Source of the DNA: Cystobasidiomycetes sp. EMM_F5
Lineage: Eukaryota
NCBI GenBank assembly: GCA_051047955.1
Contig: JBPGPT010000007.1
Location: 496,001 to 560,000, forward strand
Length of the DNA: 64,000 bases
Direction of reading: 5' to 3'
Both the position numbers and the translations under genes were made by a program. Shown here piece after piece: positions 547 to 48,787 of the stretch. The notes below the pieces were generated by a model. It was given only the letters and a program-made list of their open reading frames with translations, was not told where the DNA came from and did not search any database. Within the stretch, counting starts at the first letter, position 1; each line of letters starts with the position of its first letter.

Positions 547-851
547 TGTTGCCAGTCGCTGGACCCAGACACGCAGCGGGACAGCCGTCTTCCGCTTGTT
601 CCATCATGGACAATGTAGCAGCATGGCAGCGGGTATGTTGTTGCAGATGAAAGCAGAACAACTAGTTTGCGACCGTATTGCATGACTTCGGCAACGTGAT
701 CGATGTCTCAAATGCTCGCATGGCTTTGCGACTGACCGACCTGATATCCGACAGCTGTTCGCAGAGCTACACGTCTTCTGCAATCTACTCTGCTGGTCTG
801 CTGCTCGCTGTCGTTGGATCCACGTTCTCGTCTCATTATTATATCTCGCGC

Positions 852-7868: not shown

Positions 7869-8199
7869 GCTGGCGAGTATGGTGCAGCCATTCGTAGTCC
7901 GGGCTGGCTCAACGATGAGAAAGTTGCAATTGTCGAGAGATGAGCTCGCATTTCACGTTCTAGGTGCCCCTCAAAATGGCACCGGCAAAGTAGGCAACCT
8001 CCGAAAGCAAGACTGGGACTTTATGGACTGGCCCTTAAGTGCATGGACAAGCAATGACCTGTGTCTTGTAACGCCAGCTCGGTAGCATTCAGAACGACGT
8101 CTTGAAAGTGCGCTCAGCGGGAACGACCTCGTGCTACATTCGCCAACACCAGGGCATCCCTGCTCCTTGTGACAAGCGTACCCCCAAAGCATTAAAACA

Positions 8200-22911: not shown

Positions 22912-24798
22912 ATGAGCCTCCAAGTCCTTCGTAATCCACCCGCTCTTCGCTGCATATTCACTGCCATGTCTGGGGATTTGAACATACGTCGCAAAAGACG
23001 GCGCAATCCCGCTCAGCCCGGCCCATCCAAGCGAGCCATCGCATCTACAAGCAACGGCCTAAACGATTTATCGCTTCCCTCTGTATCGGGCAGCGTTGTT
23101 ACGCCTAAATCGAATAATGCGTCATTACAGTCGCGAAATTTTACGTCGAGCTCGGTGCAGAGCGAAACACTACGAGCACATCTGTCTGATACGCGGTTCA
23201 GCAGCTTCGTACAGCAGGGGCTACTGAATAGTTCCATCAATCTACCCTTTGACACTTGCACGGATGTGCAGGCAAAGACGCTGCCCACCATCCTGAATGG
23301 TGGCGATGTGTTGGCTCAAGCGAAAACCGGTACCGGGAAAACACTGGCTTTTCTGATACCCACGATACAGCGTCTGCTGTTGTCGAAGCGAAGTCGTCCA
23401 GTAGGCAACGTCGGCGCTCTTATACTGTCGCCGACACGAGAACTTGCTGCGCAAATAGCTGAAGCCGCCAAACCCCTGCTTCGCGATATTCCCAATATGG
23501 AGGTCCAAATCAGTACAGGAGGCAACAATGTCAATACGGAGTTACGTTCTCTACGTTCGAAACGATGCGATATATTAGTAGCGACTCCCGGCCGTCTCCT
23601 GGATCACCTGAAAAACAACGGCTTTGCCGCCAATCTGCAAGGGTTACAAGCACTGGTGCTAGACGAAGCAGACCGTCTCTTGGATGCGGGATTTAAGAAT
23701 GACATCATTGCGATATCCAAGCTGCTCCCAGACAGGTCGTCTTCGCCTAGGCAGTCCCTACTGTTCTCTGCCACGATTTCCAAGGATGTGAAGGACGTAG
23801 CCTCAGCAGTTTTGAGCACCGAACACACTTTTGTTTCTACTCTACTTCCTGGTGAAGCCAATGTGCACGAGCATGTTCCGCAATTTGTGGTTACTGCTCC
23901 TCTTGCCGACTCCATCACAGCAACGGTGGCCGTCATACGACAAGAGATTACAGCTACGCAGGCCGCAAAGATCATGCTGTTTCTACCTACTGCTAGGTCT
24001 ACGGGTATTTTCTATGCGGCACTAGAGAAACTCCAGTCGGATGTGTTGAACGGCATTCCCGTTCTGCAAATCCACTCGCGCATGTCACAATCCGCCCGGA
24101 CCAAGGCAGCGGATCAATTCAAGGATCTAAAGTCAGCCATACTCGTATCGTCTGATGTCACTGCTCGTGGAATGGACTTTCCAAACGTTACTCATGTCCT
24201 GCAGTGTGGCATTCCGCAAAATCCGGAGCAATACATTCATCGCCTAGGCAGGACGGCTCGTGCCGGTCAGACAGGGCGTGGCATTATTATTCTCACACCC
24301 GACGAAATGGTTTTTCTTCGGCATAAAGAAATCGCTGCATTGTCAATCAAGCCTATGGAGATTGATGCCGCAGCTTTTGCAGCTATTGCAGGTGCAGTCG
24401 ATGCAAGCCTCGATGCTGTTTCAACTTCTTTGAAGGCATCTGCTTACGCCGCATGGCTCGGGTGCGTTTTCATCAAGTGTCACCGTTGTTCTCAGCTGAG
24501 CCTGCTGTTTCGACAGATACTACAAGGGATTCTGCAAGCCATTCAGCTGGACGGTTCCTACTCTGATTGAGAATGGTCGTCTGTTTGCATTGCAGACGTG
24601 CAGATATCGAGGCTCATCGCCTGGTGAACTCCCGCCTGTATGGCAAATCTGTTGTTTTCGGGCAGATATGAATGCTGACTGGTGTCCTGCTTTCAGTTGT
24701 TGGCGAAGACAGTAGGCATGATGGGTCTACGAGCATACCGCAGCTCTTTCAACATAGTCGCGCACTTGCCGGATCGCGATGGCTCCGATGGAAAGTGA
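22912..24798 (+). CDS. DEAD-box RNA helicase, Mss116/Has1-like
   Basis: AKTGTGKT, PTRELA, TPGRL, DEAD, SAT, ARGMD, HRLGRTAR motifs; two 3' introns. Confidence 0.9.
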
Positions 24799-26215: not shown

Positions 26216-28383
26216 ATGGCTACTGTCGTCGTCGGTGAGGCAGTGTTGAATTATGAGAGCGAGCTCAGCCAGGATTGACATCGTAAACAACAATAAACAG
26301 CCGGGTTTGAGCTGTCGCAGCAGATTGGCGAGGGCGCATTCAGCAAGTGAGCTGGAAAGCAACCAGGCTGTTCATCATTACAACGACCGCTGATGATTTA
26401 CACCAGAGTATACCTCGGAATACGCAAAGACCGAAAGTCGCACGCTCTCCGGATGCAGGCGGCCATCAAGGTCATTGCAGTTCCGACAGACACGAATGCC
26501 GCCGATTACAAGAAGAAGGTCATCAAGGAAGTGAGACTACACAAGGCAGCATCGCATATAAACATCCTAAAGCTCCTCGACTGGGCAGAGCAGAAGGACG
26601 GGAGCATATTCATCGTCCTCGAGTACGCTCAGGGTGGGGATCTCTTTGACAAGATATCTCCAGACGTAGGCATATCAGAGGAACTCGCACACCTCTACTT
26701 TACACAACTTCTCGCTGCTCTCAACTTTTGTCACGCCAGCGGAATCGTTCATCGAGATGTAAAGCCCGAAAACATGCTCCTCGACCACGAGGGTAATCTA
26801 AAACTGGCAGACTTTGGTCTTGCAGATCTCTTCAAGTACCAGGGCAAGGAGAAGAGATGTACGGAAGCTTGTGGTTCAGCACCCTATGCTGCTCCAGAGT
26901 TGGCTCTGGGCGTGCCCTACCGCGCGCAACCTATCGACATATGGAGTGCGGGCGTAGTCCTCTTTACGTTGCTTGTTGGCAACACTCCCTGGGATCAGCC
27001 TACCTCCGCAAGCGAAGAGTATTCAATGTATCTGTCTGGCGAAATATTTCAACACGACCCCTGGTCACGCTTACCGGAAGAACTGCTATGTTTGTTTATT
27101 TCGCTCTGAACAATGTCAACGGTACAAGCTAACAACACTTCAAAACGACCAGCCCTACTAACATCAGTACTCCATCCTGAGCCAAAGCAGAGGGCAAAGC
27201 TCACTGATATTGCGGTTCTTCCATGGTTCCAAATGTAGGCATGTCTCAATTATCTGTCAAAGCTGCCAGCTGATATTCAAGCGCAGTGCCAACCCTTACC
27301 TCAAGAACGGTCTGGTGACAAATTCTACTGGTCTATGGGATGCACTGTACTCTGCAATGAACGCACAAGGAGAATTTGCCGTAAAATCGGTTTGGTCTGA
27401 TGATTCATCCGACAAGTCTGCCATCTCAGCCGGATCGCAGGATGTGCCATTGTCTCAACGCTTTCAGGGCTCGCAAGGCATGTACTCGCAGCAGTCGCGA
27501 CATCGCCAGAGTCAGCACAGTCAGCGATACGACTATTCAGGCAGCGCGCCATCAAATAGCATGCCCCGTTCGCAGGGTCGCGTACGCCAGGTCTTTGCGG
27601 ATATTACGAATCGCGGGCAAGATGCAGATTATGACGCGATGCGAAAAGAGCGAAATAAAGACAGGAGAGATCAGAATGTCGATGCTGCGACAAAGGCAAA
27701 CACGCTACACCAGACGGTCATTGAAGCGAGCATGCGGGCAGCCACTGCTGGCGGACATATGGGAACTGCTTCGCAGTATGTGGGTTGATGGCTGGACTTC
27801 ACGGCGTCACCGGCTTAAGCTGATATAATGGCCACTTTTTCAGTCACAATGTTTGTCAATGGCTCCGTCACAGCTTGCGAACCCTAATAATGCTCGCTTT
27901 TGGTCCGACAAGACACTCGAGGAGATTGCCTCTGCTATATACGATGCGCTTCAGCATCTCGGTATAAAATGTGAAGCTTTCCAGACGTCGGATGGCGCGG
28001 AGATTGCTTGGGCTACGCGCGACAGGCGAGGAGAAGCAATGACGGGTAGTTTCAAGATCAAGTACGAGCCGACGAGCGAAGACTATGAGCACACGTCTCC
28101 CGACTCTACTCTGGCAGAGATGGTTAGGGACGCCCACGAGGCCCGTGCAGCAGCTGAAGCGGAAGAGAAGGCTAGGCGTTCAGCTGCTGCGCAGGACGAC
28201 GACACGATCCAGTTTGTATCGGTGCAGAACGCCACTGGAGCAGGACCTGCTAGACCGCGTGTTGGCAGAGGCAACGGTGGATACTCCGTCTCGCTTCAAG
28301 GTCAAGGTGATCCGCTCGAGCGGAAGAGGGTCATGTTTGAGGTGGAGAAGCTACTTCCTCAAGGCATCGTCAGAGCAAGATGA
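26216..28383 (+). CDS. CHK1: Checkpoint kinase Chk1
   Basis: EYAQGGDLFDKISPDVG..AHLYFTQL, HRDVKPEN, DFG, CGSAPYAAPE, GNTPWDQP; C-terminal DRRGE..G/GDPLE KA1-like motifs. Confidence 0.85.
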
Positions 28384-28945
28384 AACCCGAATAAACGCCT
28401 TTCTCATCATTCCCACGGCGGTGTCGTCGTGTATAACAATCATTCATTGATAATGAAGGGTGAGACTGATGTTGTCAATAGCCCGCGTGAGTTAGTAGGT
28501 GCAATACAAACCATGCAAGCATTGCTGTCAAGAATTGTCGCTTGAGGTCGTCAGGATACAAGTGCCCAAAATCTCGCAGCTATTTCCCGCTGATTTCACA
28601 TCCGGCTCTATACCGCTCAAAATTACACACGCTCGTCACTCTCTGGTCCCGCTGTGTTCTGAAGGTACGTAAAGGTCGAGTTGGGAATTGCATGCGATAT
28701 TCGCAACATAGTAAGTTGTCAGTTGCGTAGAATGGGTGAACGTCATACGTGTCCGCATGCATCGTGGGATCCCTGTGAAGATTGCTCTGTCCGCAAGAGT
28801 ATAAAGACGCTACTCGTTGCTCACGTTGGCTTTCTGCCTCTTCCTCACAATCCAACACCACTTCTACGCTTCATTCGCGTCTCCACATATCTCTCTTCGG
28901 ATCACCAAAGAAGTCTCGAACAACATTTCCGCTCCCTGCACCAGT

Positions 28946-29482
28946 ATGACCTCTCGATCTCCAGCGGATTCTACAATTAGAGGGAGGACCTCCAGAACAC
29001 GCCCCGTGGACTCCAATTTCACCCGTCACGGTTCCGGTGATCTTTACGATGCCAAGCGGACCAAGTCCCCACGCAGAACAGTGTCTCCGACAAGAGTCCT
29101 CACACCACCAACTCCCTCTGTGGGGCAGCGGGTTCGGAAATTTCGGTATTACAGCTATGTCCAGCATCAGCATTACGAGACAGGATGGCCTCGGATGGAC
29201 TATTATCCACTCAAGCTCATCGTGCCAAAATGGATGCCTTTGACGTTGATCAGGATGCTTAACTTTCGACATTGGCAATGCCGCAATGTAGCTGACGCTG
29301 CAATTCAACAGACCGGACTCACGCCCAGCAAAGATGTCGTTGTGCGAGCGACTTATCTGGAATCAGAACAACCCCAGTCTTGTACGGGCACGGAACCGGC
29401 CCGCACCGTCATCTACGAAAACGTTTTGCGCAGCAGTATGCCGAAGAAGTATGATTTCGCCGACCATGAATACGGAACGTAA
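28946..29482 (+). CDS. Orphan gene family member 1 (intronless)
   Basis: KFRYYSY..LKLIVP..RNV..VVVRATY..RTVIYENVLRSSMPKKYDFA shared with paralogs; TATAAAG at ~28800. Confidence 0.7.
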   Translation: MTSRSPADSTIRGRTSRTRPVDSNFTRHGSGDLYDAKRTKSPRRTVSPTRVLTPPTPSVGQRVRKFRYYSYVQHQHYETGWPRMDYYPLKLIVPKWMPLTLIRMLNFRHWQCRNVADAAIQQTGLTPSKDVVVRATYLESEQPQSCTGTEPARTVIYENVLRSSMPKKYDFADHEYGT

Positions 29483-30424
29483 TGACCTATTCGCAACCAA
29501 GCCATTCGCTACATTGCGCTCTATGCACAGGAGCCGCAAAACCTCGTCCACCCAAATGTACCTCCAGCACCTGTACCATCAGCCCGATCTTATACACCGT
29601 TGTCATAGAGTTAGGATTTACGCCGCATTTGATTGTCAAAGATGTTCACTTGCTGCGGTGTGAGCGCGTTGCGACGGGTGTACACGCCCTGCTACGCACG
29701 TCGGCTGACTCTTACGCTTGCCCATGCGCTTCGTGGAGCTTGTCAAACGGCGACTTGCATTGATGGGTATTTCAGAATATCTACTCCTGATAACTAATCC
29801 TATCCTGCGGACTGTATAAACGACTCAATATTGGGGCCAAGGATGCTACAAAAGGGGTGAGGAGGCAATAGGATCTCAATGCGATTCGCAGGTTATCAGT
29901 AGGCACATTGTGAAGGAGGCTGTGTTCAAGAACAATGCAGCTGCTTGCATGCGTTACTGCTCGAGCGCTGTGAGCGGCCAGATCACACGAAGCATAAGTT
30001 TGTCAGTATCAACACTTAGGCAGCAATGTCGCTCTCGCCATCTCAGTCCATCGGATTGTGGAGAATGTTGGCTGTCTCAGCTTCTCATCCGGCCTTGTAC
30101 CGCTCAATCGCTCAATGGCAAACGCTTGCCACTCGGCGTTCTCACTGTTTGGAGGTATGTAAAACCCGAGCTGTGGATGGTATGCGAAATATGGAGAATG
30201 CCAAGTTGTCAGATCGTGAGACGAAACGATGTCGTGCTTGTACGCATGCACAGTGGGAAGCATGTGAAGAATGATCTGTTTGCCAGAGCGTCTGCGTTGC
30301 TCTCGTTAACTTTCTCCCTCGAATTCGTAAACCGATACCACATCCACGCTTCACTCAACTGCGCATATCTCCGTGTCTTACCTTACAGCCGTCAACCCGC
30401 GATTGCGTAGACCTACACTTCAGT

Positions 30425-30988
30425 ATGCAGTCGAGCGCTCATTCGTCGCGGACACAGGTAGTATCGATTGAAGAAGGCCCAACCATGTACGGTGCGACGT
30501 TGTCCGCTCGTCCTAGCCAAGCAGCCTCTGTAACGAGAATAGTGCGTCCAATCGATCAAATGGGTAACAGTGGTCGTCCAAAGTATCGATACTACGAGTA
30601 CTCGCAGTACGAGCCTACAGCCGGAACGGTCCCAGTTTATGAGTTGCAGCTCATTCCACCTCTGCACCGAATGGTCGCTCCTTTGAATCCCCGCATCAGT
30701 GAGCATCGCAATGTCGTCGTCGATGACATCCAAGAGAACAATTTGGCGCCGCATGCACACGTAGTCGTGCAGGCAACATACTGGAGACCTCAGCATCGCC
30801 TGGCCCGGATGCTGTCAGGTTCCGGACAATTGAATGCGAAACGCACAGTCAGCTACCAGAATGTACCAAGGAGCAGCATCCCGACCAAATATGACTTCGC
30901 TAGTCATGGAGACGATGATGATGACCTGCTTCCTCAGGAAGCGATCCGTCAGCTCGCACGCAGACACATAGCCAAAATTCGACGCTGA
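30425..30988 (+). CDS. Orphan gene family member 2 (intronless)
   Basis: RPKYRYYEY..LQLIPP..RNVVVDDIQ..VVVQATYWRPQHR..RTVSYQNVPRSSIPTKYDFA. Confidence 0.75.
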   Translation: MQSSAHSSRTQVVSIEEGPTMYGATLSARPSQAASVTRIVRPIDQMGNSGRPKYRYYEYSQYEPTAGTVPVYELQLIPPLHRMVAPLNPRISEHRNVVVDDIQENNLAPHAHVVVQATYWRPQHRLARMLSGSGQLNAKRTVSYQNVPRSSIPTKYDFASHGDDDDDLLPQEAIRQLARRHIAKIRR

Positions 30989-31623
30989 GCCTATTCCGAG
31001 GAACCGTACTGCCCGAAAAGACCGCATGCATCGTTCGCGTGTAATATCAGCTTTGAACCAGGGTATAATTAGACTAAATCAGACCAGTTGACAGTAAAGA
31101 CAGTCTCCAACGACACGTCTATTGAGATTTTGACCATCACCTTGTCCCAGCTGTGGAAGGGCGGTGTGTCTCTGCGCTTTTTGTGCAATGAGGCATCACA
31201 CAATATTCCAGGCCTTTATGTGTCCTGCTGGACCGACACTGCTGCAGAGCTTGCACAATCTCAAGTGTACAATGGGAATGATGCATGTCATATCAAAAGT
31301 TGTTTGAGGCCAGTGGTCCGCTCGACAGGAATAGACTATGTCGGGAATGGAGGAGCTGTGTTCACGAATCGTCAGTCAAACGGAGTGAACGGCTGAAGGA
31401 GTATGACAGATGAGTGTGTCAGAAAGAAATGATTGCGTAGCAAATGTCGCTTTTGCGTTCGAAGTCTGCAGACTAATGATGCCGACTCAGTGTTCCACGA
31501 CCACTCCTGTATTTGCCAACTAAGTACTGAAACAATGCCAGCATAGACACCTCGTGCATCGCATTGGCACCGGCTGTTATCGTCCTCGCTGCTGAAGACT
31601 GCTCTCACACGACATAGTGTAGC

Positions 31624-32448
31624 ATGCCGGTCCGCAGCGACATCGATAGAGAAACCAGCCAGATGTGAGGGGACGTCAAGGGCTGGCAGGCTGCAACATA
31701 GCTAACGTCGTCGTCTTGCATAACGCAGGGATCGAATAACGTAGGTTTCACGAGCAGAGTCATCCAATTGTCGACAACAACCTGAGATGCGGTCGTGATG
31801 AAAACAGACAACTTCAAGATGCGACAGATCAGGCAAGGGACCGAAAGAAACGTCTGACCTCCCACGCTGATTGAGCACTGCACATGCAGCTTATCGAAAT
31901 GATGTTTGCAAGCATCGACTATCTCACCCGAAAGGCTACATTCAAGCAGGTCTCACCGAATATACCCATAACGCAAGATATTCCCGATAGCGAAGAGCCT
32001 GCGGTGTTTGAAGGTCGGCTCCGGCTGCCTATTACGTCCATAACAACTGTACTGATTATCCCTCCACAGCCAACAAGACGAGAATGGTCCAGGAACTGCT
32101 ACACAAGGCTAAGCAGGTCGAATATCTCATCAATGCCCTTCCATCAAGTGCAGCGTTAGAGGGCGATAATGTGAAGGACTCTGCTGCTGCGCAAGGTAGT
32201 CTGGGGGACGATGTCGATACGGATCCTGAGTTCATTGCCCTTGAAGCGGAGATGAAGGAAGTCAACGCGGAATACTTGGAGGTCTTGGCTCAAGCAGGTA
32301 TGTCGTTCGCACTAGTATGGAGCATCACACATCCTTGGCTGATTACCTGATACAACGATCAGAAGAAGTGCAAGGCCAGCTCAAGCAGACGATACGGACA
32401 ATGCTCGACGAACATTCGGAGTTGAATAGCGGATTGCTGGCTATTTAA
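31624..32448 (+). CDS. MED21: Mediator subunit Med21/Srb7
   Basis: Spliced MDRITQLQDATDQLIEMMFASIDYL..LLHKAKQVEYLINALPS; includes micro-exons and a GC-AG intron. Confidence 0.85.
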
Positions 32449-32691
32449 CGCATGAGTCTGATAGGAGTGCAGTATACGTATGTCAAATGTCGTTGTCCTT
32501 GTATGCGCAAAATGTGGAGACTTCGCCCTCGTGTATCGCGTCGCGTCCTCACCGCGCGATCGATATTCTTGTCGGCGAGGATGAAAAGCGTCTTGCTGCT
32601 TTGCTACTTGCAACGTTACTCTGCTTTGCATCACCATCGCTTGGAGAGCACAGCGTCACTTGATTGGGTCACATTCTGCGCAAGTTGAATC

Positions 32692-33859
32692 ATGTCGGAG
32701 TACGAAGCCGCTCGCGTGAGCTTCGAAACCTGTGCAACGATGAGCAGCGATACTGAAAAATCTAACATCACAGGCTGCAACCATAGCTGCCAACAAGGCC
32801 CTCCTAGCCAGTCTAGGCATACAACGCGAAGAAAAGGTCGCCGCACCCAGGGTTGCTCGAGTGCCCCTGCAGCTAAATCTGCCAAAGAGGGAGAGAATAC
32901 CCAGAGCAGCCAAAGGGTCCCGCCAGGATCAAAGATCAAAGAATAGTGAGCCATAATGCGTGGATATCGTTTGGACAGCCTCGGCGTATGTAGCAAAACT
33001 GACCTTTGCGGACTCGCGGTGGCAATCACTTTCAGGAATAGGGCGGTCGCACAAACGAAGTAGACTGGCAACGAATGGCAGCGAGGAGGAAGATGTGTTG
33101 ACCGGTGGGGAGGATACAGATGACTACGACAGCGAAGGCTTCTATAGGTCATCTCGCCGGGAGTCTGAGAATGAATCGCTTGGATACGATCCATCCAACA
33201 TTCACGACGCGACTGCACCGTATGAAGTCCGGCGCGTCATAATGCATAAATCGACAGGAGAGAGGATCATTGTGCACACGCGTCAGACAAACAGAGAGAT
33301 GATGCGTCCTAGAATCGTACGCTCCGTTAGCTCGGACAGTACTTCTGCAAGTGGAAGCGCATCTACATCGGAACTGCCAAACTCTAGGAAGAGGCTCACA
33401 CCAGAGACGTCATCCGACGACATTAGTAAAGAGCAGCTGGACAAGTATTCGTACTACGTCGACATCTCGGAAGAAGAAGTTGTTCCGCAAGCGAAACAGA
33501 GGAAATGGGTAGCCACGACCGAAATTGAAAGACAACCCCTTCATCCTGCCAAAATCAAGGCCAACCAGACAAGGACTTTAGTGGTCAAGCAGCAAACTCC
33601 TACAAAGCGAATCGCAACCGCGATCCCAGCCAAAAGTCCGATGGCGCAGCAAGCCATTACATCGGTCTCTTCGGATTCTGAGCAGGACGAGGTGAAGATG
33701 GTACCATCGCCATCGCGATCAGTGAAGCGCTTCAGACCCAGTCGGCCTAGTCAGAGGCGAGCGGGATCATCAGTGTATGGAGGTTCGCGAGGCGGACGAA
33801 TCGAAGATGATGAGGATTCAGATGACGCAGTCGTAGTGACCGCCTCATCAAGGCGATAA
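32692..33859 (+). CDS. Hypothetical low-complexity Ser/Arg/acidic protein
   Basis: Adjacent ORFs 32692-32946 and 32960-33859 with a GTGAGC donor between; no recognisable domain. Confidence 0.45.
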
Positions 33860-34166
33860 TCGAAGGCTAGTGGGATGGGGTTTGTGCTAATTTAGGAAGA
33901 GGCTTAGGGACGATGTCAGATTGCTCAACTTAAGGCCGGAGAGTTTCAGCGTGGATTTAGTTTCTGTGGAGAGTCACACTAGATGTACGGTTACATGTAG
34001 CGCAGACGGTACCAATGAGATCGCGTTATCGGGATGAGGCTCAGAGGTCAATGGATGCCAGTTATACGCACAGACCCTCTGCTGGCGTGAAGCTTAATGT
34101 CTGTATTGGATCTGTCTACAAGACTATTCTATGCATATGCTGGACACTGCTACTTATCCGCTTGGT

Positions 34167-35593
34167 CTAGAACTGAAAGAAACGCGACATTAGCCTGGAT
34201 CCTGCTCGATTAGCTTTCTTGGCCCACCTTGTAGATCTGACTTGGCTGGTAGCCTGCATCAGCGAGGTAGCCTTTCAGCGGGCCCTGGTCTTTTGGTGAT
34301 GCCTTTTCACCACAGACAACTTCGACCATTGGTGGTGGTCCGCACACGAAAATCTTGATTTTATCTCCGTGACCAGGAAGTGGCAAGTTTTGGTTGAGCG
34401 CATCTCGCCCAATGAAGCCCTTGTAGCCCTTCCACGACTTTCCGGGTCGCTCGATGACGTGCTGAATGTTGAATTGTTCAGGCTTGCGCTTGCTTAGATC
34501 AGTGAGCGCTTCTTTCAGGAGAATATCATCCTCAGTAACGTTTGCAAACAGGAGATTAACCTTGGTCTTGTCATTGGGGTCTCTGTCGATCGCTTGCAGG
34601 AGCTGGTACATTGGGGCTGAAGCAGGTAGTATGTTTAGTGAGGATTGCCGCGATAATTGTCAACATGTCGCTTCTAACTCACCGATACCTGTACCACCGG
34701 CAATCATGGCGACTTGCTCAAACTCGTTGGCTTTCCAGGCTGTGCAATTGACATAGGTTAGAGATGATCTGAATCAGAGTAATAACCAGCTGACGGTGCT
34801 TTGGAAGGGGACCTGTGGAAACAGTGCAAGTCAGAATACCGGATAGTGAGTTAGAGAGTTGGGAAACGCTCACCCTTGATTGCAATCTCATCACCGGGCT
34901 GCAGATCCTTGTGCAAATGGCTCGACATTGCTCCGTTGTCGTACTTTTTGATCAGGAATTCGATACGACCTTTGGTGTCTGGAGTAGATACTGGAGTGTA
35001 TGGTCTGATTGCTGGCTTTCCCTTTGCATCGAGGCCGAGACCCTCCTTGACTGGCTTGAGCAGGACAGCCGATGCGACTGTGAGACCGGAATCGAGCTCT
35101 GCCGGAATCTCAAAGATGAATCGGGATGTATTGTGGTTGTAGGGTTGAATCTCCTTTAGTTTGAAATTTACAAACTTGCTAGGGTCGAGAGCGCCAGCAG
35201 TCTTTGACGCGGTGCTGGCTGTAGTTGCCGTCAGAGCTGCGAGTGGGTTGCCGGCCTTGCCATCTGATCCGGGCACAGTCGCGCCCGTCCGTTGCAGGTA
35301 GTATGCTCCTCCGGCTGCAATGACGCCGACCCCGAGAAATATGCTGGCAATGTTGGCAGACTTGTTCTGCTTCTCGGCGGACGGTATCGGACCTGAGGCG
35401 TATCTTCGGGCCTGGGAGTGCGAGTTGGGTGAATGCAGCGTGGTTTATGAGAGAAGGCGGCGGTAAAGTAGTCGTCAACGCAACAATCCCGAGTCTGCAA
35501 AAGCACCAAACCACTCACTCCGCTGAAACCCTGCGACAGCGATGGAGCGCAGCGTGTCCCGGAAGCGGCGGACGAGAAGAGCAGTCTGTTCAT
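34167..35593 (-). CDS. MCR1: Mitochondrial NADH-cytochrome b5 reductase
   Basis: Presequence plus TM, RPYTP (FAD), GAMSSHLH, MIAGGTGI/PMYQL, LLFAN, FVCGPPPM. Confidence 0.9.
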
Positions 35594-35921
35594 GGTAGAG
35601 CGGTGTGAGATTATGTGTGGTTACCCTGTAAACAAAGTGTGCAAGACTGGTCAAGATGGGTCTCCATTCGCGATATCGATGACACATTGTGTGATCGAGG
35701 TCGGTCAAGATACTGTATCGTAAAATGCTCGAGCAGCTATGAGCTGGTACTGGTCTGCTCTTCAACATTACAACAGCGCAGTTATATTCCTAAAGCCTCG
35801 CTTACCTTTGTTTGAAAATCTTGCATTGCGCCACTGTACAGTCCAAGTTTTTCTTTGAAAGCAGCCCTTTTCTTGCAAACGACTGCAACATCTGGACGAT
35901 ATATACTCACCATCTGTGACC

Positions 35922-36999
35922 ATGCCAGTCTCACCAGCAGTCCTGGCAGCGCAAAAGACAAAGTCGTACGCCAGCGCTGCGACTTCTGGACGGGCAGCAC
36001 CGACAGCCAGTACTTCAAAGCTGCCAGCCAGGGTTGCAGTGCTGCAGCCTGTTGAGCATGATGCAGAGATGGATAACGATGTGGACGACGAGGATGATGC
36101 AAGTGCGGGAGAATGGCAGGGAATCAGTACTCAGCCCGAGGAAATAGATATCGATGGAAAGGCTTTAGCCGACGACAATGAAGACGACGACGCAGTCATG
36201 ATTGATCCTACTTCGCTACTCCCACCATCTACATCGTCCAACAAGGGCAAACAAGCGGATCAGGCTGCGACAGCAGAACAGGGTACCCTCAAATTTGCAC
36301 CTCTGTCGGCAAAGGAGATGCAAGGGAGGATAGAGACGCAATTGAGGAGAGTGGCAGTGAGTTAAAGCCAGTCTCATGTATGAGTCATCGTACGTGCTCA
36401 GATGTCCATCAGATTCCACCACACCGCATGACACCCCTCAAGCGAGACTGGCCAAAGATCTACTCTCCCCTAGTAGACGAGTGTGGTCTCATGGTGCGCA
36501 TGAATGTAGGCAAGAAGGCTATCGAAATCAAGACTTCAAAACATACTGCCGCACCCGCTGCCTCCGTCCTGCAGAGGGCAGTCGATTTCGTCACGGCCTA
36601 CGGATTGGGCTTTGCAGCCGAAGATGCGGTCGCGTTGTTGCGCATGGAGGAGCTCTATGTCGAGACATTCGAGGTGAGTATACCCTGTTGCCTGTCCGCA
36701 GTCCGATGCTGTTCTTACATCAAGTCACGCAGATCAAGGACGTAAAGAACTTGACAGGCGACCATCTCGGCCGTGCAATTGGCCGTATAGCAGGAAAGGA
36801 TGGCAAGACACGATTCACCATCGAGAATGCATCTAGGACCCGTATCGTCCTGGCAGACCAAAAGATTCATCTACTAGGTACCTTTTCGAGCTTGAAGATT
36901 GCAAGAGACGCTATCTGCGCACTCATTCTCGGTAGTCCGCCCGGAAAAGTCTATAATGGTCTGAGGACCGTCGCAGCGAGAAATCGTCAGCGCTTTTAG
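35922..36999 (+). CDS. PNO1: Pre-rRNA processing KH protein Pno1/Dim2
   Basis: [63 protein letters not shown]. Confidence 0.95.
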
Positions 37000-37295
37000 C
37001 AGTCTTGTACGAATTCTTGGGTAGATTTGTGAGTCTAGGATGTAGTGCATTATGTATGTCATGATTTGCACACTGTGCTGATCCTTTCTGTGGCTCCTAG
37101 GGTGCTTATGTTGTATCCGGCTACGTTACTTGTTAGGCAAAATCTTTTGGGTTTACGCTGGTGATAACCCGATCATCCTAAACCAATATGACTCCGATAC
37201 ACTGATTCGCGAGATAGTATGCTTACATACCAATATAACGTATTTGCTAATACTGCGAGCTGGGTTCCGACGGTCGTTCGGCTGTGAGGAGGACC

Positions 37296-37870
37296 CTACT
37301 TTTTAGCAGATGCGAAGGTATAGTAAACCGGCATTTCGTTTCTGGGCATGTAATCGTAAGTAACGGTACGCTCGCCTCCTCCGAAAAGCCCCAATACACG
37401 ATGACTGGGTCTCGAATACGTAGCACGAACGACATAATTTTCATCCCCCGTGAAGGAGCCATCCGTCGGGATGTTGTGTGCGCCTTGCACTTGCCGAAGA
37501 GAGACGCTTCGATCTGTAGTAAGTTCCATGTCAACACGGACTCTGCGTACCTGCGATCGAGTACGTGACGGCTTCGACGGCGGCAGAATCGGCCTCGAAA
37601 TCAGGCAGGTTTCCGCCTGCCTACCTACGGATGGGGCTGATGAAGTAGCTCCGATCGCGTCCAATATCGGTACTCTGGACGGCCATTGTTGGTCGATTGT
37701 TCCGTCTTTGTAGCGACTGGAGTAATCGATGCTGGGCTACCGCCTGCGCGTGGAAGGGCCGATGCATAAGGCTGGGATGTCGATGCTCGCCGTGTTGACT
37801 GAGACTCTCTACCCTTTCTACTGGTTTGCCAGCTAATTCGAAAGCGTTGGGATACTGATGTTGAAAGCTG
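37296..37870 (-). pseudogene. Orphan gene family member 3, frameshifted
   Basis: NGRPEYRYW motif (~37661-37687) is in a frame ending at TAG 37625-37627; RPILPP..VVRATYSRPSHR..RTVTYDYMPRNEMPVYYTFA is in another frame. Confidence 0.6.
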
Positions 37871-38428
37871 CCATTGTTAGAGGACTGACCTGCTGCTGTA
37901 GAACGCCTAGCTAATGGCCGTCAATAACTGGCAGTCTGGGAGTCCCTTCGAACGAGGGTAGGCGTATCTTGGTGTCTCTGGCTGGCGCCTACTCTCTCGA
38001 ACCAGTTACGGGCGCCATTGTCGAACGAGAACCTTTGTTGCGACATTGTTGACAGAGAAAGGACGTCCGTATCACAAGAAGGTCGAGGCCCAGACCAAAA
38101 ATGATACTTTATTTGTATGTGAGAAAGGAGCTGACACCGACCCAAGATGGGGTGTGAAAGATTCACGATTGTGCTTTCACAGCCATTACTGACAAGGCTG
38201 CGCTTGGTGCATGTTGTATATGCGGTGAAAATGCTGAGCAACAGTTCGTGTACAGCCGGACTTAGACCACTAGTGCTGACAATACCTACTGCTGACGATG
38301 TCTCATATCGCGAAATGAGTGGAGATTGGTCAATGCTGCAGAAGCTATACGGGGAGTGTCACGGCTGCTTTACATACAGAGGAAATATTCAAAGTCTTAA
38401 TAGTCCGGGCTGCGGTGATGATTGCCAT

Positions 38429-38980
38429 TCATCGTCTGGAAATCCCCAGTCGTTCTTCCATCTCACTTCTCGGCACTAAGTGGTAGCTGACTGTAAGCTC
38501 TCCGCCTCCTCGCCCAAAGATGTTGCGATGACGAGGTCTGGAATATGTTGCTTTCACAACGTTGTTGAGGTTGGGTTGTACCTGACCCGAGGTTCCGGGT
38601 TGAGGCTTTGGGTACCCATGTATGTCGGACAGCAAGACATTACGAGACTCGACCGAAGCTGACGTTGAGCCGTTGCTGGACGTCAGTCGCTGGAGGTTCA
38701 GAGCAGGCCCGTCGTTGGTGCTAACAACAGTGTCCAGCTCGATTTTGTAATACACGTATACTGGAGTGCCTGAATTGTCTTCTTGTTGACTCCGCCGGAC
38801 AACCCTCGTAGGGGAGGTGTTACGACCGGCTGATCCAGCCGTCACGGTTGCCGTGTATGCGTTCACGCTGCTAACGCCGGTGAATCCTGCCATACTAGCT
38901 GTCGCAGCTGCAGTGACTCTTTCGCCAGATTGTCTTCGATTCGGAGATCTTGATGAAGTCCTTCTCCTGGTAGCCTGCAT
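38429..38980 (-). CDS. Orphan gene family member 4 (intronless)
   Basis: TSPTRVVRR..PVYVYYKI..RNVLLSDIH..NVVKATYSRPRHR..GGGELTVSYHLVPRSEM. Confidence 0.72.
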   Translation of the reverse strand: MQATRRRTSSRSPNRRQSGERVTAAATASMAGFTGVSSVNAYTATVTAGSAGRNTSPTRVVRRSQQEDNSGTPVYVYYKIELDTVVSTNDGPALNLQRLTSSNGSTSASVESRNVLLSDIHGYPKPQPGTSGQVQPNLNNVVKATYSRPRHRNIFGRGGGELTVSYHLVPRSEMEERLGISRR

Positions 38981-39907
38981 GATTGTGTTAAGGCTTTAGA
39001 TGCACAAGCTAATGAGTTAAAGTGTCAAGATACCGATACAAGTAAAGAGCCAAGAGTAATCATTCGAAAGATCGTATGTGCGTATTCACTGCGTCTTTCC
39101 CGACGAAATCTCGCAGATGAGCACGTTGCGCTTGACAATATCGCACAAACAACAACTGCGCTGTTCCATACAGCACTTCTCCGATGCGGTGAAAGACCGA
39201 GGTCGTGAGAAGGAATAATCGTTCATCGAGTGGCGACGGGTTAGTGAGGAGATTGCACTGGTTGCTGGCTGCGCTTTAGTAGCAAGGACTACACGAAGCC
39301 CGCTCTGCTAAGTCAGTTCGATGTTGCTTTGCATGCCGGGTGTACGGCCAGAGAGCATACGAGGGGGAAGTTGTCAGAGCTTAAAAAGTAGTTTGGGTCA
39401 GAGATTGGCAAGAGTGTCCAACAGCGCACGTGAATAATCAGTCGCTTTTTGTCATAGCACATTTCAAATTGGGGCAGGTCCGCTAAGCGTTTGATACATC
39501 TGGGAGCAAGCGCCCCTAAATTTGCCCAATTGCATCACGCCTCTTGTTCCAGTGCTAGCCTTCGCAATTTTGGGTCGCATGCAGTGTTCGTCTAACGTCC
39601 TTCTGAGTCGACTCATCTGAAACGTGTTCTCCTGGTTACGTCAATCAAATTTGACGTTTTAGTGCATTCGTACAGTCCTGATTCTTTGGACATGTGCGCA
39701 ACGAGATTCAGCATGCACGTCTACTTCACAAATGCTTGTAAGTTAGATCAGGTAATGTTGCATTGTGTAATCCCGCTGTGGAAAGCGAATTGAGGCAATG
39801 CACATGATAGTTCAGAGAGGTGTAAAAGCGTACTAGTCGCAAGCTAGGTGAACGTGTCAGATCGAATCCGCCGCTACTCCACCGCTATAGCGCTCTGCCA
39901 TTATATA

Positions 39908-40465
39908 CTAGCGTGCAAATGAGTAAGATGCCAGCATATCGGTCTTTAGAATGTTACTGTAGCTGACAGTCGGCTGGCCACCTCCAATCATGCGACGGTT
40001 CGGTCTCGAATACGTTGCTTTCACCACGTTGTACTGCCTCAAATGAGCCAAAATAGGTTTGCCCGTGATGATGGACCTGAGGTTATTTGTACCTGTTACC
40101 ATACTCTCCAAAGTTGTTCGTGCTCCTTGTATTGCGTGTATTTTCACGTCGAGTGGTGCCTCCATCGTCTGAGGCACGGAGCGTTGAAAGACGTTTCGAG
40201 CAGGGGGAATAAGCCTGAGCGTAGCTTTAGGCGTCCAATTTCCGTTCGCGTCTACAGCATTGTTTAGTCCAACATATTCATAGTATCGATATTTCTTGGA
40301 ACCGCGGTCGGAAGCTTGGCTCGATTCCGTTACTACAGGAGTACCGGATAATGTATGGTGCAAAGATCGGCTGGACGTGCCACTGTCGACGGAGGCTCGC
40401 GACGGGGCTACGTTACTGGAGACGGAAGTACGCGGTGTCTGAGCTCCTGCAGGGGTTGTGGCCAT
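39908..40465 (-). CDS. Orphan gene family member 5 (intronless)
   Basis: KKYRYYEY..LRLIPP..NVVKATYSRPNRR..GGGQPTVSYSNILKTDMLASYSFA. Confidence 0.75.
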   Translation of the reverse strand: MATTPAGAQTPRTSVSSNVAPSRASVDSGTSSRSLHHTLSGTPVVTESSQASDRGSKKYRYYEYVGLNNAVDANGNWTPKATLRLIPPARNVFQRSVPQTMEAPLDVKIHAIQGARTTLESMVTGTNNLRSIITGKPILAHLRQYNVVKATYSRPNRRMIGGGQPTVSYSNILKTDMLASYSFAR

Positions 40466-41171
40466 TGTAGATGGATCAATCAGAAATAGCGAAGGATGTG
40501 ATAGAGTTGAATTGATGCGGGCAGCAAGAGGTTTTGGTAATTGAGATGAAGAAGAGAGAGGCACCTGAAACACCAACCCACTTCTATTGCGCCATCATGC
40601 CAAAACGGAGCCGGGCCGCCGTTGCGTATGACTGTGAGCTTCGCCATGACACTGCCGTCACCGGAAGTCGCGCCAGGGCTGAGCACGCCAAGATGCTGGG
40701 TGTTTGAAGGTCGCTGTGTAATTCCACTGCTTGCAGTTCTATGGCAGCAGCATTCGACTGATGTCGTACCATTTGCAGATCCATCTGCGAGGTTTTTCTC
40801 CCTGGCAGGGACAGCCGAATTCCTGCCTGTGCGCGTCAGATGTCATACAGACTTGCTGGAGCTTTAAATCTCTGTGATGCATTTCAGTCCGCAGAGTGGC
40901 CTCGAAATCGCCGGTTGATGACTCTCAAAGACAAGCGACCAGTACCAGCTGCGTTTCTTCTTGAGTACGGCCCACGCAATGTATGTGGAGTTGTACCACA
41001 TGATACCTTTAGGCTGATGCTCAATTAGGGTGAATACATGAGATTGCGTTCGAAGGACTTAACTCTGTGAGCTAGAAGAACGTCTGTCTTACACACTGTT
41101 AGCAATATAAAGCACCGCCTAGAGCATGAAGCGACATGATGGGATGCAGCGTTATCATGATCTACGATATG

Positions 41172-41570
41172 CTATACCGATGTTTTGTGTATCAGCTGAA
41201 ACGTTTGAAGCTGGTTGGGCGCTACATGACGGCGGAGGTGTTTGCAGTAGTAAGAGGTCGTCACACGGACTTTATAGAGTTTGCCGAATTGTGCATTTGT
41301 ACGTCTGACAGCTTCCGATTCAGATTGACCAGATCTGGTAAACCCATCAAGGAGTTGACGGTACACCTGTGCAGCGCTTCTGTGATCTATGGTCGTCCTC
41401 GACAAGCTAATTGGTCGAGGCACTGCAGGGTCTGACGTTTGTAGCTTGATCCAAGAGTCTGCTTCGCCAGACTCGATAGACTCGATTTCGTAGTCTCTGT
41501 ATTTGGGAAAGATGACTTGTCCTGAGCCTGGCATGTTAGCGCGTCGTTGTCTGAATTTGAGGCAATTCAT
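41172..41570 (-). CDS. Probable divergent orphan family member 6
   Basis: PKYRDYEI..KVRVTTSY..QTFQLIHKTSV in the same order as family motifs; tandem and co-oriented with members 3-5. Confidence 0.4.
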   Translation of the reverse strand: MNCLKFRQRRANMPGSGQVIFPKYRDYEIESIESGEADSWIKLQTSDPAVPRPISLSRTTIDHRSAAQVYRQLLDGFTRSGQSESEAVRRTNAQFGKLYKVRVTTSYYCKHLRRHVAPNQLQTFQLIHKTSV

Positions 41571-41960
41571 TATCTTTGAGGAGATTGTAAATCAGTGATG
41601 TATAAGAGATGAGGCGAGAGGTGCAGGTAGACGCTGTCATGAGGCATCGACGTGCGAGGTCAAGTGAGGCATCGCATTGACGAAGCACGGGCAATGTCGC
41701 GGCGGTGGAAGGGGGAACAGAGGGGACAGAGGGAGACGCATGACAAGAGTGTCGACGTTGCGAGGTGACATGGATCATTAGAATGAGTAATTTGGAGTTC
41801 AAGCTGTGAGCCATACGATCGCTGCGTACCAACCTGAATACTTCGAATTCTGAGTCACTACGACGCCGTTACTTGTTACTTAGAGGACCATCCCATGCTG
41901 CGACAGCGTCAAGCTACTCGGCAGTCAACGCCAGCATCGCGCCGAAGAGGTAATTAAACT

Positions 41961-44366
41961 ATGTCGGAGCATGAAGGCAGTCACGAGGGAGAGAAGCGGG
42001 AGGCTCATTCAGCAGCAATAGAAGCGGGAGATGGAGTAGCAGACCACGATGTGAAGGACGACGACCAATTCTCAGCGATACCATCAGAAGCAGCACCCGT
42101 CGACAACGCGCAAATGGACGCGAATGAATCGCAAACAGACGCGAAAGCACGAGCGGACGACAAAGAAAGCGAGGAAATTGAGAGTACCCATCTTGACAGT
42201 GACAACGATGAATCAAAGTCATCCCAAACTTATAACGCGTCCGGAGAGCTTGAAAACGAGCACGAACAACCAACCCCAAACATTCCGCATGATACTGCTT
42301 TGCGCCCAACTTCACTACCAAGCCCCGAGACTCCTTCCAAGAATACTCATGCACTCACAGACGACGATGCACTGCTGAAACAGCAAGAAACACCAAGACT
42401 AAGCAGTCATGGCAGCTGGCGCGACTCTGTGGCGACAACATCTGCGCTCGACAGCGTTGCCCTGACGGATACGAGCAGTATTGCGTCTCCTCCTACCTCT
42501 CCTATCTCTGCATCAGACTTCTCCTTCGTTGCACTCGCGGGCGTTGTTGAGCAAGCGACGACGAATGGTCATAATGTACCCTCTCTGGCTCTGCCTGAAG
42601 ATGACACAGCAAGCAGATCAGAGCAGCCTAGCCCATCAGGCGTGAGCTCGCACGACTATGACTTTCTACGGCATCGCGCAGACTCGACGAGCGTCGCGAT
42701 GGCAGAACATCTGGCAAACGGGCAGAGGCGGAGTCAGATTGTCGACCAGGAGATACGCGCTAGCTTCAATAGGATGAAGGAAGATGCTCAGCACTATGCG
42801 TCCGAGCATGATGACAGTACAGTCAGTGCAAAGGACCTCGGAACTTCTAATGACTATGCGAACGGTATACAAGCCATCGATTGGGATTTGTGGGGCAATA
42901 TTATGAACGACTACGAGGGAATGGCAAGGAACAGTCGTAAGCTCAATCCTTGAGCCGTTCGTCAGTATTCCATCTAATTTCGCTGTTTTCGATAGCCCGC
43001 CAATTGTCCAAAGCGATACAAAACGGGATCCCGCCAGCGTTGAGAGGGATGATGTGGCAGCTCATGTCTGCGTCTAAGGATCCAGAACTAGAAACAGTAT
43101 ACTCGCAGCTGATGAAGCAAAATTCGCCGCACGAAAAGCAAATTGTGCGGGATCTCAATCGGACATTTCCGTCGCATGAATACTTCAAAACTGGATCAGG
43201 CGTCGGTCAAGGTAATCTCATGAACGTTGTCAAAGCCTACAGTCTGTATGACGAAGAAGTAGGATATTGCCAAGGCATGGCATTCGTGGTCGGGCCACTA
43301 CTGCTGAATGTGAGTGGACTTGCGCTAACAGGACTAGATAGCTGCTTACGTTCTCTCCGAATCAGATGCCAGACGAAGAAGCCTTCTGCGTTCTGGTTCG
43401 CCTTATGAAGTCTTACGATTTACGGTCGCAGTATCTGCCAGACATGCCAGGTTTACAACTCCGGCTATTCCAGTTTGACAGACTGCTTGAAGAGCTGTTA
43501 CCCGCTACTTTCCTTCATCTCCTTCGACAAGGCATCAAGTCCTCAATGTACGCCTCCCAATGGTTCTTGACACTCCTAGCATATCGCTTTCCCCTCGAAT
43601 TGGTCTGCTCTGTCTTTGATCTCATTTTCGCCGAAGGCGTTGAAGCAATCTTCAGGTTTGCTATAGCACTGATGAAGCGAAACGAAGCCCGGCTACTCGA
43701 GCTTGACTTCGAACATTTACTCGAGTTCCTCAAGAGTGGCTTGTTTGAGCACTACAAGGTGGTTTTATGCTACCGATCATGCAGTCTTAAGCCGAACTGA
43801 GATATCGGTCCGCCAGCTTGACCTCGAGAAGGAAGCTGGTGACGCTGACTCAGACACGTACTGCGCACGGACCTTCTTGCGGGAAGCCCTGTTTGTCAAA
43901 ATAACGCCCCTCATGTAAGTCACGCATCGCACACCTCGCACAGCTTCCCCCTGATACCACCAGCAGGCTCGATCAATTTGCCAATGAATGGACTGAGATG
44001 TGCCGACAGCAGACTGCGCAAAGTCGGGAGGTAGAGCAACTCCGCGAGATCAACAGAAAATTGTCAAATCAGGTCAGAGGACTAGAACATAGCTTAGCGC
44101 AGATCAATCAAGAACATTGCGATCTCGTCAAGCAGGTTGTACAGATCAGGCTAGACAAGGAAGAGCTCGAAGACGAGCTTGTCAAGTGCAAGATGGCTCT
44201 GGCGCAAGAGTCTTTGGTAGGTTTTGAAACAGATTGTTCGTCTCTTTCTGACTGTCGTATTCTGCAGTTGCGAGAGGAAGGAAGAGGATCAAGAGGATCA
44301 GTCTCTTCATTCGTCAGTTCGAGCAGTATGTTGAGCGGGCGTACAAACAGTGAAGGGGTGTCATGA
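41961..44366 (+). CDS. GYP5: TBC-domain Rab GAP (Gyp5/EVI5-like)
   Basis: IDWDLWG, GIPPALRGMMWQ, IVRDLNRTF (R finger), YCQG (Q finger), MYASQWFLT, C-terminal coiled coil. Confidence 0.88.
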
Positions 44367-48020: not shown

Positions 48021-48787
48021 TGAGTCGGAAGGGATTAATATGAAATGTGACGATATGAGCAGACATACTCACGAGCCACCAGCTGCGGCGTACACAGTAA
48101 ATTATCTTCCAGACCTTGGACATGCCAGTCACGTGCTTACTGCCACTCGCGCCGTACCTGAATGCTAATTGCTTTGAAGCGTTGCGAATGATTGACAGCA
48201 GTCTAAGCGCTGTAACGAGCTTTTGAAGGCGGGGTATGTGCCATTGAATATTATTCTGCAATGGATCAAACAGCTATTCTAATACTGGCTGGCTGCCGAA
48301 ACTCTCAGTTTGCCCTTGACGTGCGTGACCAAATTCAAAGTTCCGCCGATGACTGGCAGAGTTGGCATCCTTGACGTTTGGACAATGTCGACTCTGCTGT
48401 AGCCATATCCCCCAACGCTGCCCCCGTATACCCAGTATACCATAGCCTGTCGACACTCCGACTGCGCTCAGGCCTGACGTGGTCGCAGATCCGGCATTCA
48501 TCCATCCATCCACGAGCCATTATTATAGTCGCAACCTGGCCAACTCTTATTCTTCAAAGATATCCCCCAACCCTCAACGCGCAAGATACCCCCAAACAGT
48601 CGTCGTAAAGTCTCAATCCAGCCTGCCAGTGTACGTGCTCGGGTCACCAAAAGTGCCCGCGGGGGGTTCTAAGGCGATCCATGCGTAACAGATGGCTGAT
48701 TGATGATTTGGACTCGTCCTCCAGCCACATCTCTGTGTACGTTGATAACCATCACATACTCGCACTCCCATCACCTCCTCACTCTTC

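Follow-up and report, generated by a model that had tools for sequence, protein, structure and literature searches.

Which kind of protein is encoded by a cluster of small, basic open reading frames (ORFs) that lies among housekeeping genes of a basidiomycete, and how did this cluster arise? We addressed this question for a stretch of 64,000 nucleotides from Cystobasidiomycetes sp. EMM_F5 (contig JBPGPT010000007.1 of assembly GCA_051047955.1, positions 496,001 to 560,000 of the forward strand), hereafter the window, in which a first-pass annotation made from the letters alone had described five and probably six intronless ORFs between positions 28946 and 41570 as a rapidly evolving, lineage-specific family with a shared, unrecognised domain. 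We regard it as practically certain that five of these ORFs represent a real family of paralogues. The explanation that we favour, though with somewhat less than even confidence, is that of an old paralogue family kept under constraint in an isolated basidiomycete, which encodes a putative nucleic-acid binder with an OB-like (oligonucleotide/oligosaccharide-binding) fold as predicted by structural models.

All-versus-all BLASTP comparison of the six ORFs connected the five copies, numbered by position in Table 1, in nine of ten pairs with E values from 1.5e-18 (copies 1 and 2) to 6.6e-4. The only exception was the pair formed by the copies at 28946 and 38429 (E 0.47). In addition, the alignments display the ordered motifs listed in the first-pass annotation, and their order is constant across the copies: SxT[RP]V, KYRYYxY, LxLIPP, RNVxxxI, VVxATYSRPxHR, GGG and TVSYxxVPRSxMPxxYxFA. 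In four of the five copies the SxT[RP]V motif contains an S/T-P site, which for copy 3 is located in its N-terminal frame; any meaning of this site is speculative. A hidden Markov model (HMM) of the family, built from the five copies and run over the 1635 six-frame ORFs of at least 25 residues in the window, recovered these copies only (six matches at E≤1.6e-5, copy 3 being matched twice), whereas the next ORF followed at E 0.84. Hence, this search revealed no further copy in the 64 kb. As the model was trained on the same copies, it is the pairwise BLAST comparison that provides the independent evidence for the family.

The sixth ORF proposed, at 41172, adjoins the array on the same strand and is likewise basic, but it is not a demonstrable member. 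Its best BLASTP match to the copies has an E value of 0.70, and against the family HMM it ranks 18th of 1635 (E 5.6) with a score of 3.7 bits that is reached by 65 of 3000 composition-preserving shuffles. Moreover, the protein collection yielded neither a homologue of this ORF nor a match to itself. The echoes of the family motifs (KYRDYE...) are collinear but faint. The ORF may thus be spurious, or it may be a fully decayed relic of the family, which is conceivable from its position and strand.

The five copies are preserved to different degrees. Copy 3 is broken across frames. Its C-terminal half lies in the stop-to-stop frame 37296-37736(-), which contains ..VVRATYSRPSHRVLGLFGGGERTVTYDYMPRNEMPVYYTFASAKK and the motifs VVRATYSRPSHR..GGG..TVTY..YTFA, while the N-terminal half (..ASITPVATKTEQSTNNGRPEYRYW..), bearing SITPV and EYRYW, is found in the separate frame 37628-37876(-). 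The family HMM matches the C-terminal part with an E value of 2.6e-31 and the N-terminal part with 1.6e-5. The N-terminal frame contains no in-frame ATG, and there is no ATG-initiated ORF of at least 80 residues at this copy; the sole nearby ATG is in the third frame and is followed by a stop 13 codons on. At least two frame changes would be required to restore the reading frame. We also considered an intron as a repair, which is unlikely, as the only frame-restoring GT..AG stretch, read by eye, is 35 nucleotides long and has an atypical donor. Judged from the letters, copy 3 is therefore probably a pseudogene, or the result of an assembly error. Alignments further indicate that copies 1 and 4 are locally degenerate. 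Copy 1 is the most diverged, with LESEQP instead of SRPxHR following VVRATY; copy 4 has a degenerate LxLIPP motif, and its final ~10 residues are diverged and lack Y.FA. We also considered whether a frameshift had altered the 3′-terminal part of copy 4, but rejected this, since no convincing Y.FA motif is found in the other frames. Copy 2 carries an additional acidic, helical C-terminal tail (residues 161-187), and copy 5 an insertion of ~20 residues ahead of strand 4.

We then asked whether the copies are under constraint as coding genes. With the six frames of the window taken together, stops occur at a frequency of 0.034 per codon, so that the probability of 178 codons without a stop is ~0.002, and shuffling of the 14-kb region yielded on average 0.285 ORFs of at least 178 residues, with a maximum of two in 200 shuffles. 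A chance origin of the four long ORFs is thus excluded. Nei-Gojobori counts on the codon alignment of the five copies gave proportions of synonymous differences (pS) of 0.72-0.85 in ten of ten pairs, which is the random level and indicates saturation. The proportions of nonsynonymous differences (pN) were 0.39-0.59 over all aligned codons and 0.29-0.55 in the ungapped C-terminal block, and pN was below pS in all ten pairs. The comparison of nonsynonymous (dN) and synonymous (dS) rates that the first-pass annotation had suggested therefore yields the direction of the difference but no quantitative dN/dS ratio, because dS is saturated. Matches at the DNA level are confined to snippets coding for the motifs. 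As the synonymous sites are saturated while the amino-acid motifs persist, these results point to old, constrained paralogues rather than to a recent burst. The designation as rapidly evolving is not supported on this basis, as old duplicates under constraint fit equally well. Taken together, we consider it probable that the copies are functional coding genes.

The intact proteins are strongly basic (isoelectric point (pI) 9.7-11.0) and hydrophilic (grand average of hydropathy -0.44 to -0.82), contain 14-23% Ser plus Thr, and have few or no cysteines. Their N-terminus is polar and Arg-rich. In the four intact copies no 19-residue Kyte-Doolittle window exceeds 1.0, and the maximal 10-residue mean within the first 40 residues ranges from -0.71 to 1.29, so that this crude hydropathy test agrees with the annotated lack of signal peptides and transmembrane (TM) segments. 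Structure prediction and a fold search, as suggested at the outset, were performed for two paralogues using the five-sequence alignment. The AlphaFold2 model of copy 2 (mean predicted local distance difference test (pLDDT) 53.9, predicted template modelling score (pTM) 0.51) has a disordered segment at residues 1-44 (pLDDT<50), after which come three strands (53-63, 71-76 and 94-98), one helix (99-104), two further strands (113-120 and 141-148) and a C-terminal helix (171-186). The model of copy 5 (residues 50-185; pLDDT 70.0, pTM 0.65) repeats this order of elements and adds helices within the insertion. Both models thus share the order β1-β2-β3-helix-β4-β5, at the low to moderate confidence that a five-sequence alignment affords, and together with the pI values they agree with the annotation as β-rich basic proteins.

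This order of elements is that of the OB fold, a closed five-stranded barrel. Correspondingly, OB-fold or cold-shock domains (CSDs) accounted for most of the weak top-ranking rows in each of the four fold searches. With Foldseek, the copy 2 model reached at best an E value of 0.34, with HIN and RPA70N domains, while the copy 5 model matched best the Cdc13 OB2 domain (E 6.5e-3, template modelling (TM) score 0.32, root-mean-square deviation 9.1), followed by LEF-3, Rim1, single-stranded-DNA-binding proteins (SSBs) and RPA. Further examples, from the rows of VIA-align, are the Unr CSDs (Z 4.2-4.5), the OB domains of EF-P and eIF5A (Z 3.7-4.1), PriB, Pf3 SSB and CTC1. An OB-like fold, as predicted, in a basic protein whose strands carry conserved Tyr, Arg and His residues suggests binding of single-stranded nucleic acid. 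On the strength of the models, we hold the chances that the conserved domain folds as an OB-like barrel to be evenly balanced; that the protein binds nucleic acid is a real possibility, albeit a more doubtful one.

In the explanation that we favour, old local duplications of a gene whose protein was kept under constraint would have left four intact copies and a broken one. The product would be a soluble, strongly basic protein of ~180 residues. Its first 45-65 residues would form a disordered tail rich in Ser, Thr and Arg, which may serve regulation or targeting. The tail would precede a domain of ~110-120 residues, predicted as a five-stranded barrel with the motifs distributed as β1(KYRYYxY)-β2(LxLIPP)-β3(RNV)-helix-β4(VVxATY)-β5(TVSY). 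This barrel might bind single-stranded nucleic acid via the conserved Tyr, Arg and His residues.

Several observations weigh against this explanation. The models of copies 2 and 5 derive from one alignment of five sequences and are not independent, and that of copy 2 is of low confidence. Foldseek found no match in the PDB at E≤0.001 for either model. Among the 48,161 chains compared by VIA-align, neither model had a match at Z≥5; the best Z values were 4.3 and 4.5, and the tool itself notes a best Z of 7-8 as typical of unmatched models. The proposed structure prediction and fold search thus yielded a common strand order and weak OB-like rows but no significant fold match. Likewise, no Pfam family of the OB, CSD, SSB or tRNA_anti type was matched at E≤1. 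A basic pI and conserved Tyr and Arg residues would suit many other roles as well. Finally, the constraint is not uniform, as copy 3 is broken and the C-terminal motif is missing from copy 4.

The family is an orphan in every collection that we searched. An hmmscan comparison with Pfam at E≤1, which covered copies 1, 2, 4 and 5 as well as the sixth ORF at 41172, gave no family for four of these five ORFs and for the fifth only Abhydro_lipase, at chance level (E 0.072, 13.1 bits compared to a cut-off of 27). A word-based search with copy 2 against 5.8 billion clusters returned only the protein itself. When 1.84 billion representative proteins were searched exhaustively with the family profile using HMMER, seven proteins were found at E≤1e-3, four of which are the window's own. 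The other three (E 1.0e-4 to 5.4e-4) were judged spurious: they are long repeat proteins of 1399, 1167 and 429 residues matched in four to six short stretches each, one of them built of WD40 repeats and containing a V.QATWSHDE strand. Pattern matches in IMG/VR contigs (four) were not confirmed by tblastn, and none of those in JGI metagenome contigs was confirmed. In PHROGs, which covers prokaryotic viruses only, four of five members matched no family at E≤0.1, and the other produced a chance-level row (E 0.073). The best match of a sequence profile search of the PDB was an unrelated regulator (E 0.71), and the ESM Atlas contained no usable match for copy 5 or for the copy 2 domain. Thus, the domain is indeed unrecognised, and two of the outcomes that the first-pass annotation had named as refuting were not observed: there is no confident Pfam match, and pairwise similarity is significant in nine of ten pairs.

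The four family proteins that the public collection contains are singletons and stem from a single Logan assembly; the exact protein of copy 1 is absent, and copy 5 is represented there (P0002) by 39908-40564(-), a 218-residue protein with a GTG start. These entries are automatic prokaryote-style gene calls rather than curated gene models. As a gauge of how isolated the host is, we used the neighbouring DEAD-box helicase ORF of 552 residues at 22912-24567(+), designated MSS116 by one source. Its best named relatives are 45-51% identical and belong first to Pucciniomycotina (Sporobolomyces, Rhodotorula, Phenoliferia, Microbotryum, Melampsora) and then to other Basidiomycota, while three Logan proteins reach 58-63% identity. 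Judged from this one gene, the host belongs to the basidiomycetes, and the database contains no sequenced genome close to it. Since the paralogues are ~35% identical to each other and the host is isolated, relatives of the family would be untraceable over that distance. The orphan status therefore appears to be owed largely to poor sampling of the host lineage, and the term lineage-specific holds operationally, as no relatives were found, but is weak as a biological statement.

The same reasoning sustains the most serious rival to a putative OB-like binder: the copies might belong to an ordinary lineage-wide family with a housekeeping or structural role, which is an orphan by sampling and for which the OB-like prediction is an artefact of a shallow alignment. 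If named relatives of the helicase are only 45-51% identical, a family with paralogues of ~35% identity would escape detection so far out. In addition, the genes are set among core housekeeping genes, and every fold match lies under the noise level stated by VIA-align. This view leaves the retention of several diverged copies unexplained, and it has to accommodate the emergence of an OB-like strand order for two paralogues. We consider it unlikely, yet it deserves to be taken seriously.

The features of the locus are compiled in Table 1.

Table 1. Family copies, associated elements and genes between the arrays (positions in the window)
Feature	Position	Strand	Description	Evidence or location
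Copy 1	28946-29482	+	intact ATG-ORF, 178 residues, pI 10.0	ORF listing, BLASTP, HMM match
Copy 2	30425-30988	+	intact ATG-ORF, 187 residues, pI 9.7	ORF listing, BLASTP, HMM match, AlphaFold model
Copy 3	37296-37876	-	broken across frames	frame reading, HMM matches, tblastn
Copy 4	38429-38980	-	intact ATG-ORF, 183 residues, pI 11.0	ORF listing, BLASTP, HMM match
Copy 5	39908-40465	-	intact ATG-ORF, 185 residues, pI 10.5	ORF listing, BLASTP, HMM match, AlphaFold model
Sixth ORF	41172-41570	-	132 residues, basic, pI 10.1	adjoins array, same strand; not a demonstrable member
Upstream element, copy 1	28595-28893	+	non-coding; 58-nt GTACGT...CAG at 28665-28722	
Upstream element, copy 2	30082-30371	+	non-coding; 58-nt GTATGT...CAG at 30155-30212	
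Med21	about 31.9-32.4 kb			between arrays
Ser-rich ORF	33242-33859	+	205 residues, no Pfam match	between Med21 and cytochrome-b5-reductase-type gene
Oxidoreductase NAD-binding gene	34210-34611	-	cytochrome-b5-reductase type	
Pno1	35.9-37.0 kb			between arrays

The copies form two small tandem arrays in opposite orientation, with two copies on the + strand (28.9-31.0 kb) and three on the - strand (37.3-40.5 kb), which flank four genes: Med21, an unassigned ORF, an oxidoreductase of the cytochrome-b5-reductase type and Pno1. A maximum-likelihood tree of the domains separates the copies at 28946 and 30425 from those at 37296, 38429 and 39908 with a support of 92/95, and this split coincides with the physical arrays. 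Such a tree is as expected from local tandem duplication following an older split or inversion. Outside the arrays, a protein kinase gene (Chk1) precedes the locus and a TBC RabGAP gene follows it, and the other genes of the window are likewise housekeeping genes (Hsp70, Mpp10, UCH peptidase, aldehyde dehydrogenase, Yju2, PPPDE peptidase, DEAD-box helicase). The neighbouring genes are intron-rich, being split over several frames. Neither transposase nor reverse transcriptase domains were found in the neighbouring ORFs, and the copies are flanked neither by long direct, inverted or terminal repeats nor by remnants of transposable elements (TEs). The GC content of the copies (0.49-0.52) equals that of their flanks, and Rfam gave no match at E≤0.1 on 27500-42500. 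Apart from the family, the window contains open frames of 300-666 residues without a Pfam match at E≤0.001, located at 666-2186(+), 5952-7952(-), 17325-18227(+) and 48749-49753(+); such unmatched long frames fit a lineage with many unassigned proteins.

Inspection of the flanking DNA revealed that copies 1 and 2 share an upstream element of ~300 bp. The two elements are 66% identical over 305 bp as determined by blastn, and the upstream pair yields a Smith-Waterman score of 85 compared to a shuffle mean of 10.8 and a maximum of 15. Thus, the upstream DNA of these copies is more conserved than their coding DNA, where blastn finds no match. The other nine upstream pairs (scores 10-15) and all ten downstream pairs (9-13) show no similarity relative to shuffle maxima of 12-18, and no flanking similarity is common to the - strand copies 3, 4 and 5. 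An exon or a gene within the element was considered and rejected, as stops occur in all six frames, no frame stands out and the mismatches lack a 3-base periodicity. Both elements contain a GTAYGT..CAG stretch of equal length (58 nucleotides), ~213-224 nucleotides 5′ of the ATG, which by its sequence is likely an intron in the 5′-untranslated region (5′-UTR). All motifs of the intact copies lie in one frame, so that no intron is needed within their coding sequence (CDS). The description of the genes as intronless consequently stands for the coding part, but in view of the candidate 5′-UTR intron shared by copies 1 and 2 it may hold for the CDS only.

That the coding sequences of copies 1 and 2 are more diverged than the DNA upstream of them could be taken as a sign of an arms race. 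The copies might constitute a family engaged in genetic conflict or defence, such as a meiotic driver, a toxin-antidote-like system or an anti-virus factor, which diversified in this way. Tandem clustering, strong divergence between the motifs, one decayed copy and the lack of homologues elsewhere would be in line with this idea. However, with saturated synonymous sites fast protein evolution is not demonstrable, and pN is below pS in every pair. Moreover, the profile search revealed no similarity to a known driver or defence protein, and the region is gene-dense, of housekeeping character and free of TEs. We therefore regard genetic conflict as quite improbable.

It is still less probable that the copies are non-functional relics, i.e., products of duplication that have ceased to be genes and survive by chance. 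The broken frame of copy 3 and the missing C-terminal motif of copy 4 would be expected of relics, the periodicity of GC content by codon position is weak in copies 1, 4 and 5, and the public entries amount to automatic calls from one assembly. Nevertheless, four ORFs of 178-187 residues are still open after synonymous saturation, and the order of the motifs is preserved in all copies.

A horizontal acquisition or viral domestication followed by local duplication could account for an intronless CDS within an intron-rich neighbourhood and for the failure of the profile search to detect fungal homologues. Yet, no relative was found in the 1.84 billion representatives, in IMG/VR or in the JGI metagenome contigs, and PHROGs gave nothing meaningful. 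The GC content does not differ from that of the flanks, flanking repeats are lacking, and an apparent, typically fungal 58-nucleotide intron precedes copies 1 and 2. Such an origin is very unlikely. The suggestions of the first-pass annotation concerning conflict, drive and a viral or horizontal origin thus find no footing in this locus: there are no viral or prokaryotic relatives, repeats, TEs or GC deviation, and the neighbourhood is of the housekeeping type. Secreted effector-like proteins, finally, would also be small, lineage-restricted and clustered, but the polar, Arg-rich N-terminus without a hydrophobic segment, the scarcity of cysteines and the location in a core region instead of a repeat-rich compartment render this least credible of all.

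Returning to the old, constrained family with a putative OB-like domain, a more specific version can be envisaged, in which an OB-like family of single-stranded nucleic-acid binders of an under-sampled basidiomycete lineage has diversified such that each paralogue has its own nucleic-acid target, the upstream element being a shared regulatory switch. The targets may lie, for example, in the defence against mycoviruses or retroelements, or in the handling of telomeric or mitochondrial DNA. We consider this version improbable as a whole. If the genes are expressed, they represent a protein family without sequence relatives among ~1.8 billion representative proteins, and one whose fold is a matter of conjecture. 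In that case, the family would be a data point on the rise and diversification of small nucleic-acid-binding barrels in fungi, and a gauge of how far sparse sampling explains the 'dark' protein space of basidiomycetes. Fungal genomes commonly contain orphan families as large as this one; the data indicate no unusual mechanism and open no long-standing question.

Compared with known systems, the closest structural counterparts are the OB-fold and cold-shock proteins among the rows of the fold searches, namely the Unr CSDs (6y6e, 7zhr, 6y4h), the OB domains of EF-P and eIF5A (6j7m, 8s8u, 6s8z, 8put), Cdc13 OB2 (4hce), the mitochondrial SSB Rim1 (6cqm/6cqk), Pf3 SSB (1pfs) and PriB. Like these barrels, the predicted domain of the family is ~100-120 residues long, with a helix separating the third from the fourth of its five strands, and the family is basic, with aromatic and basic residues conserved along the strands. 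In contrast to them, it displays no sequence similarity in Pfam or in the PDB profile search, its structural scores remain at Z≤4.5, Foldseek E≥6.5e-3 and TM score≤0.33, and it is preceded by a long disordered Ser/Thr/Arg-rich tail and carries its own set of motifs. Fungal meiotic drivers and killers of the Spok, wtf and Spk-1 type are small to medium-sized genes of restricted lineages, in which several diverged copies can be present; drivers as such are defined genetically. Unlike these, the family described here has no sequence relative whatsoever in the profile search and, unlike wtf, no TM segments. The family further resembles the lineage-specific tandem orphan families of fungi, with which it shares small size, an intronless CDS, local duplication, and the absence of outside homologues and of a Pfam domain. 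It differs from the generic type in its location in a core housekeeping region, which is neither repeat-rich nor subtelomeric, and in the age of its copies as reflected by saturated dS. The family is thus new as a sequence family, while in kind it belongs to the common orphan tandem families of poorly sampled fungi.

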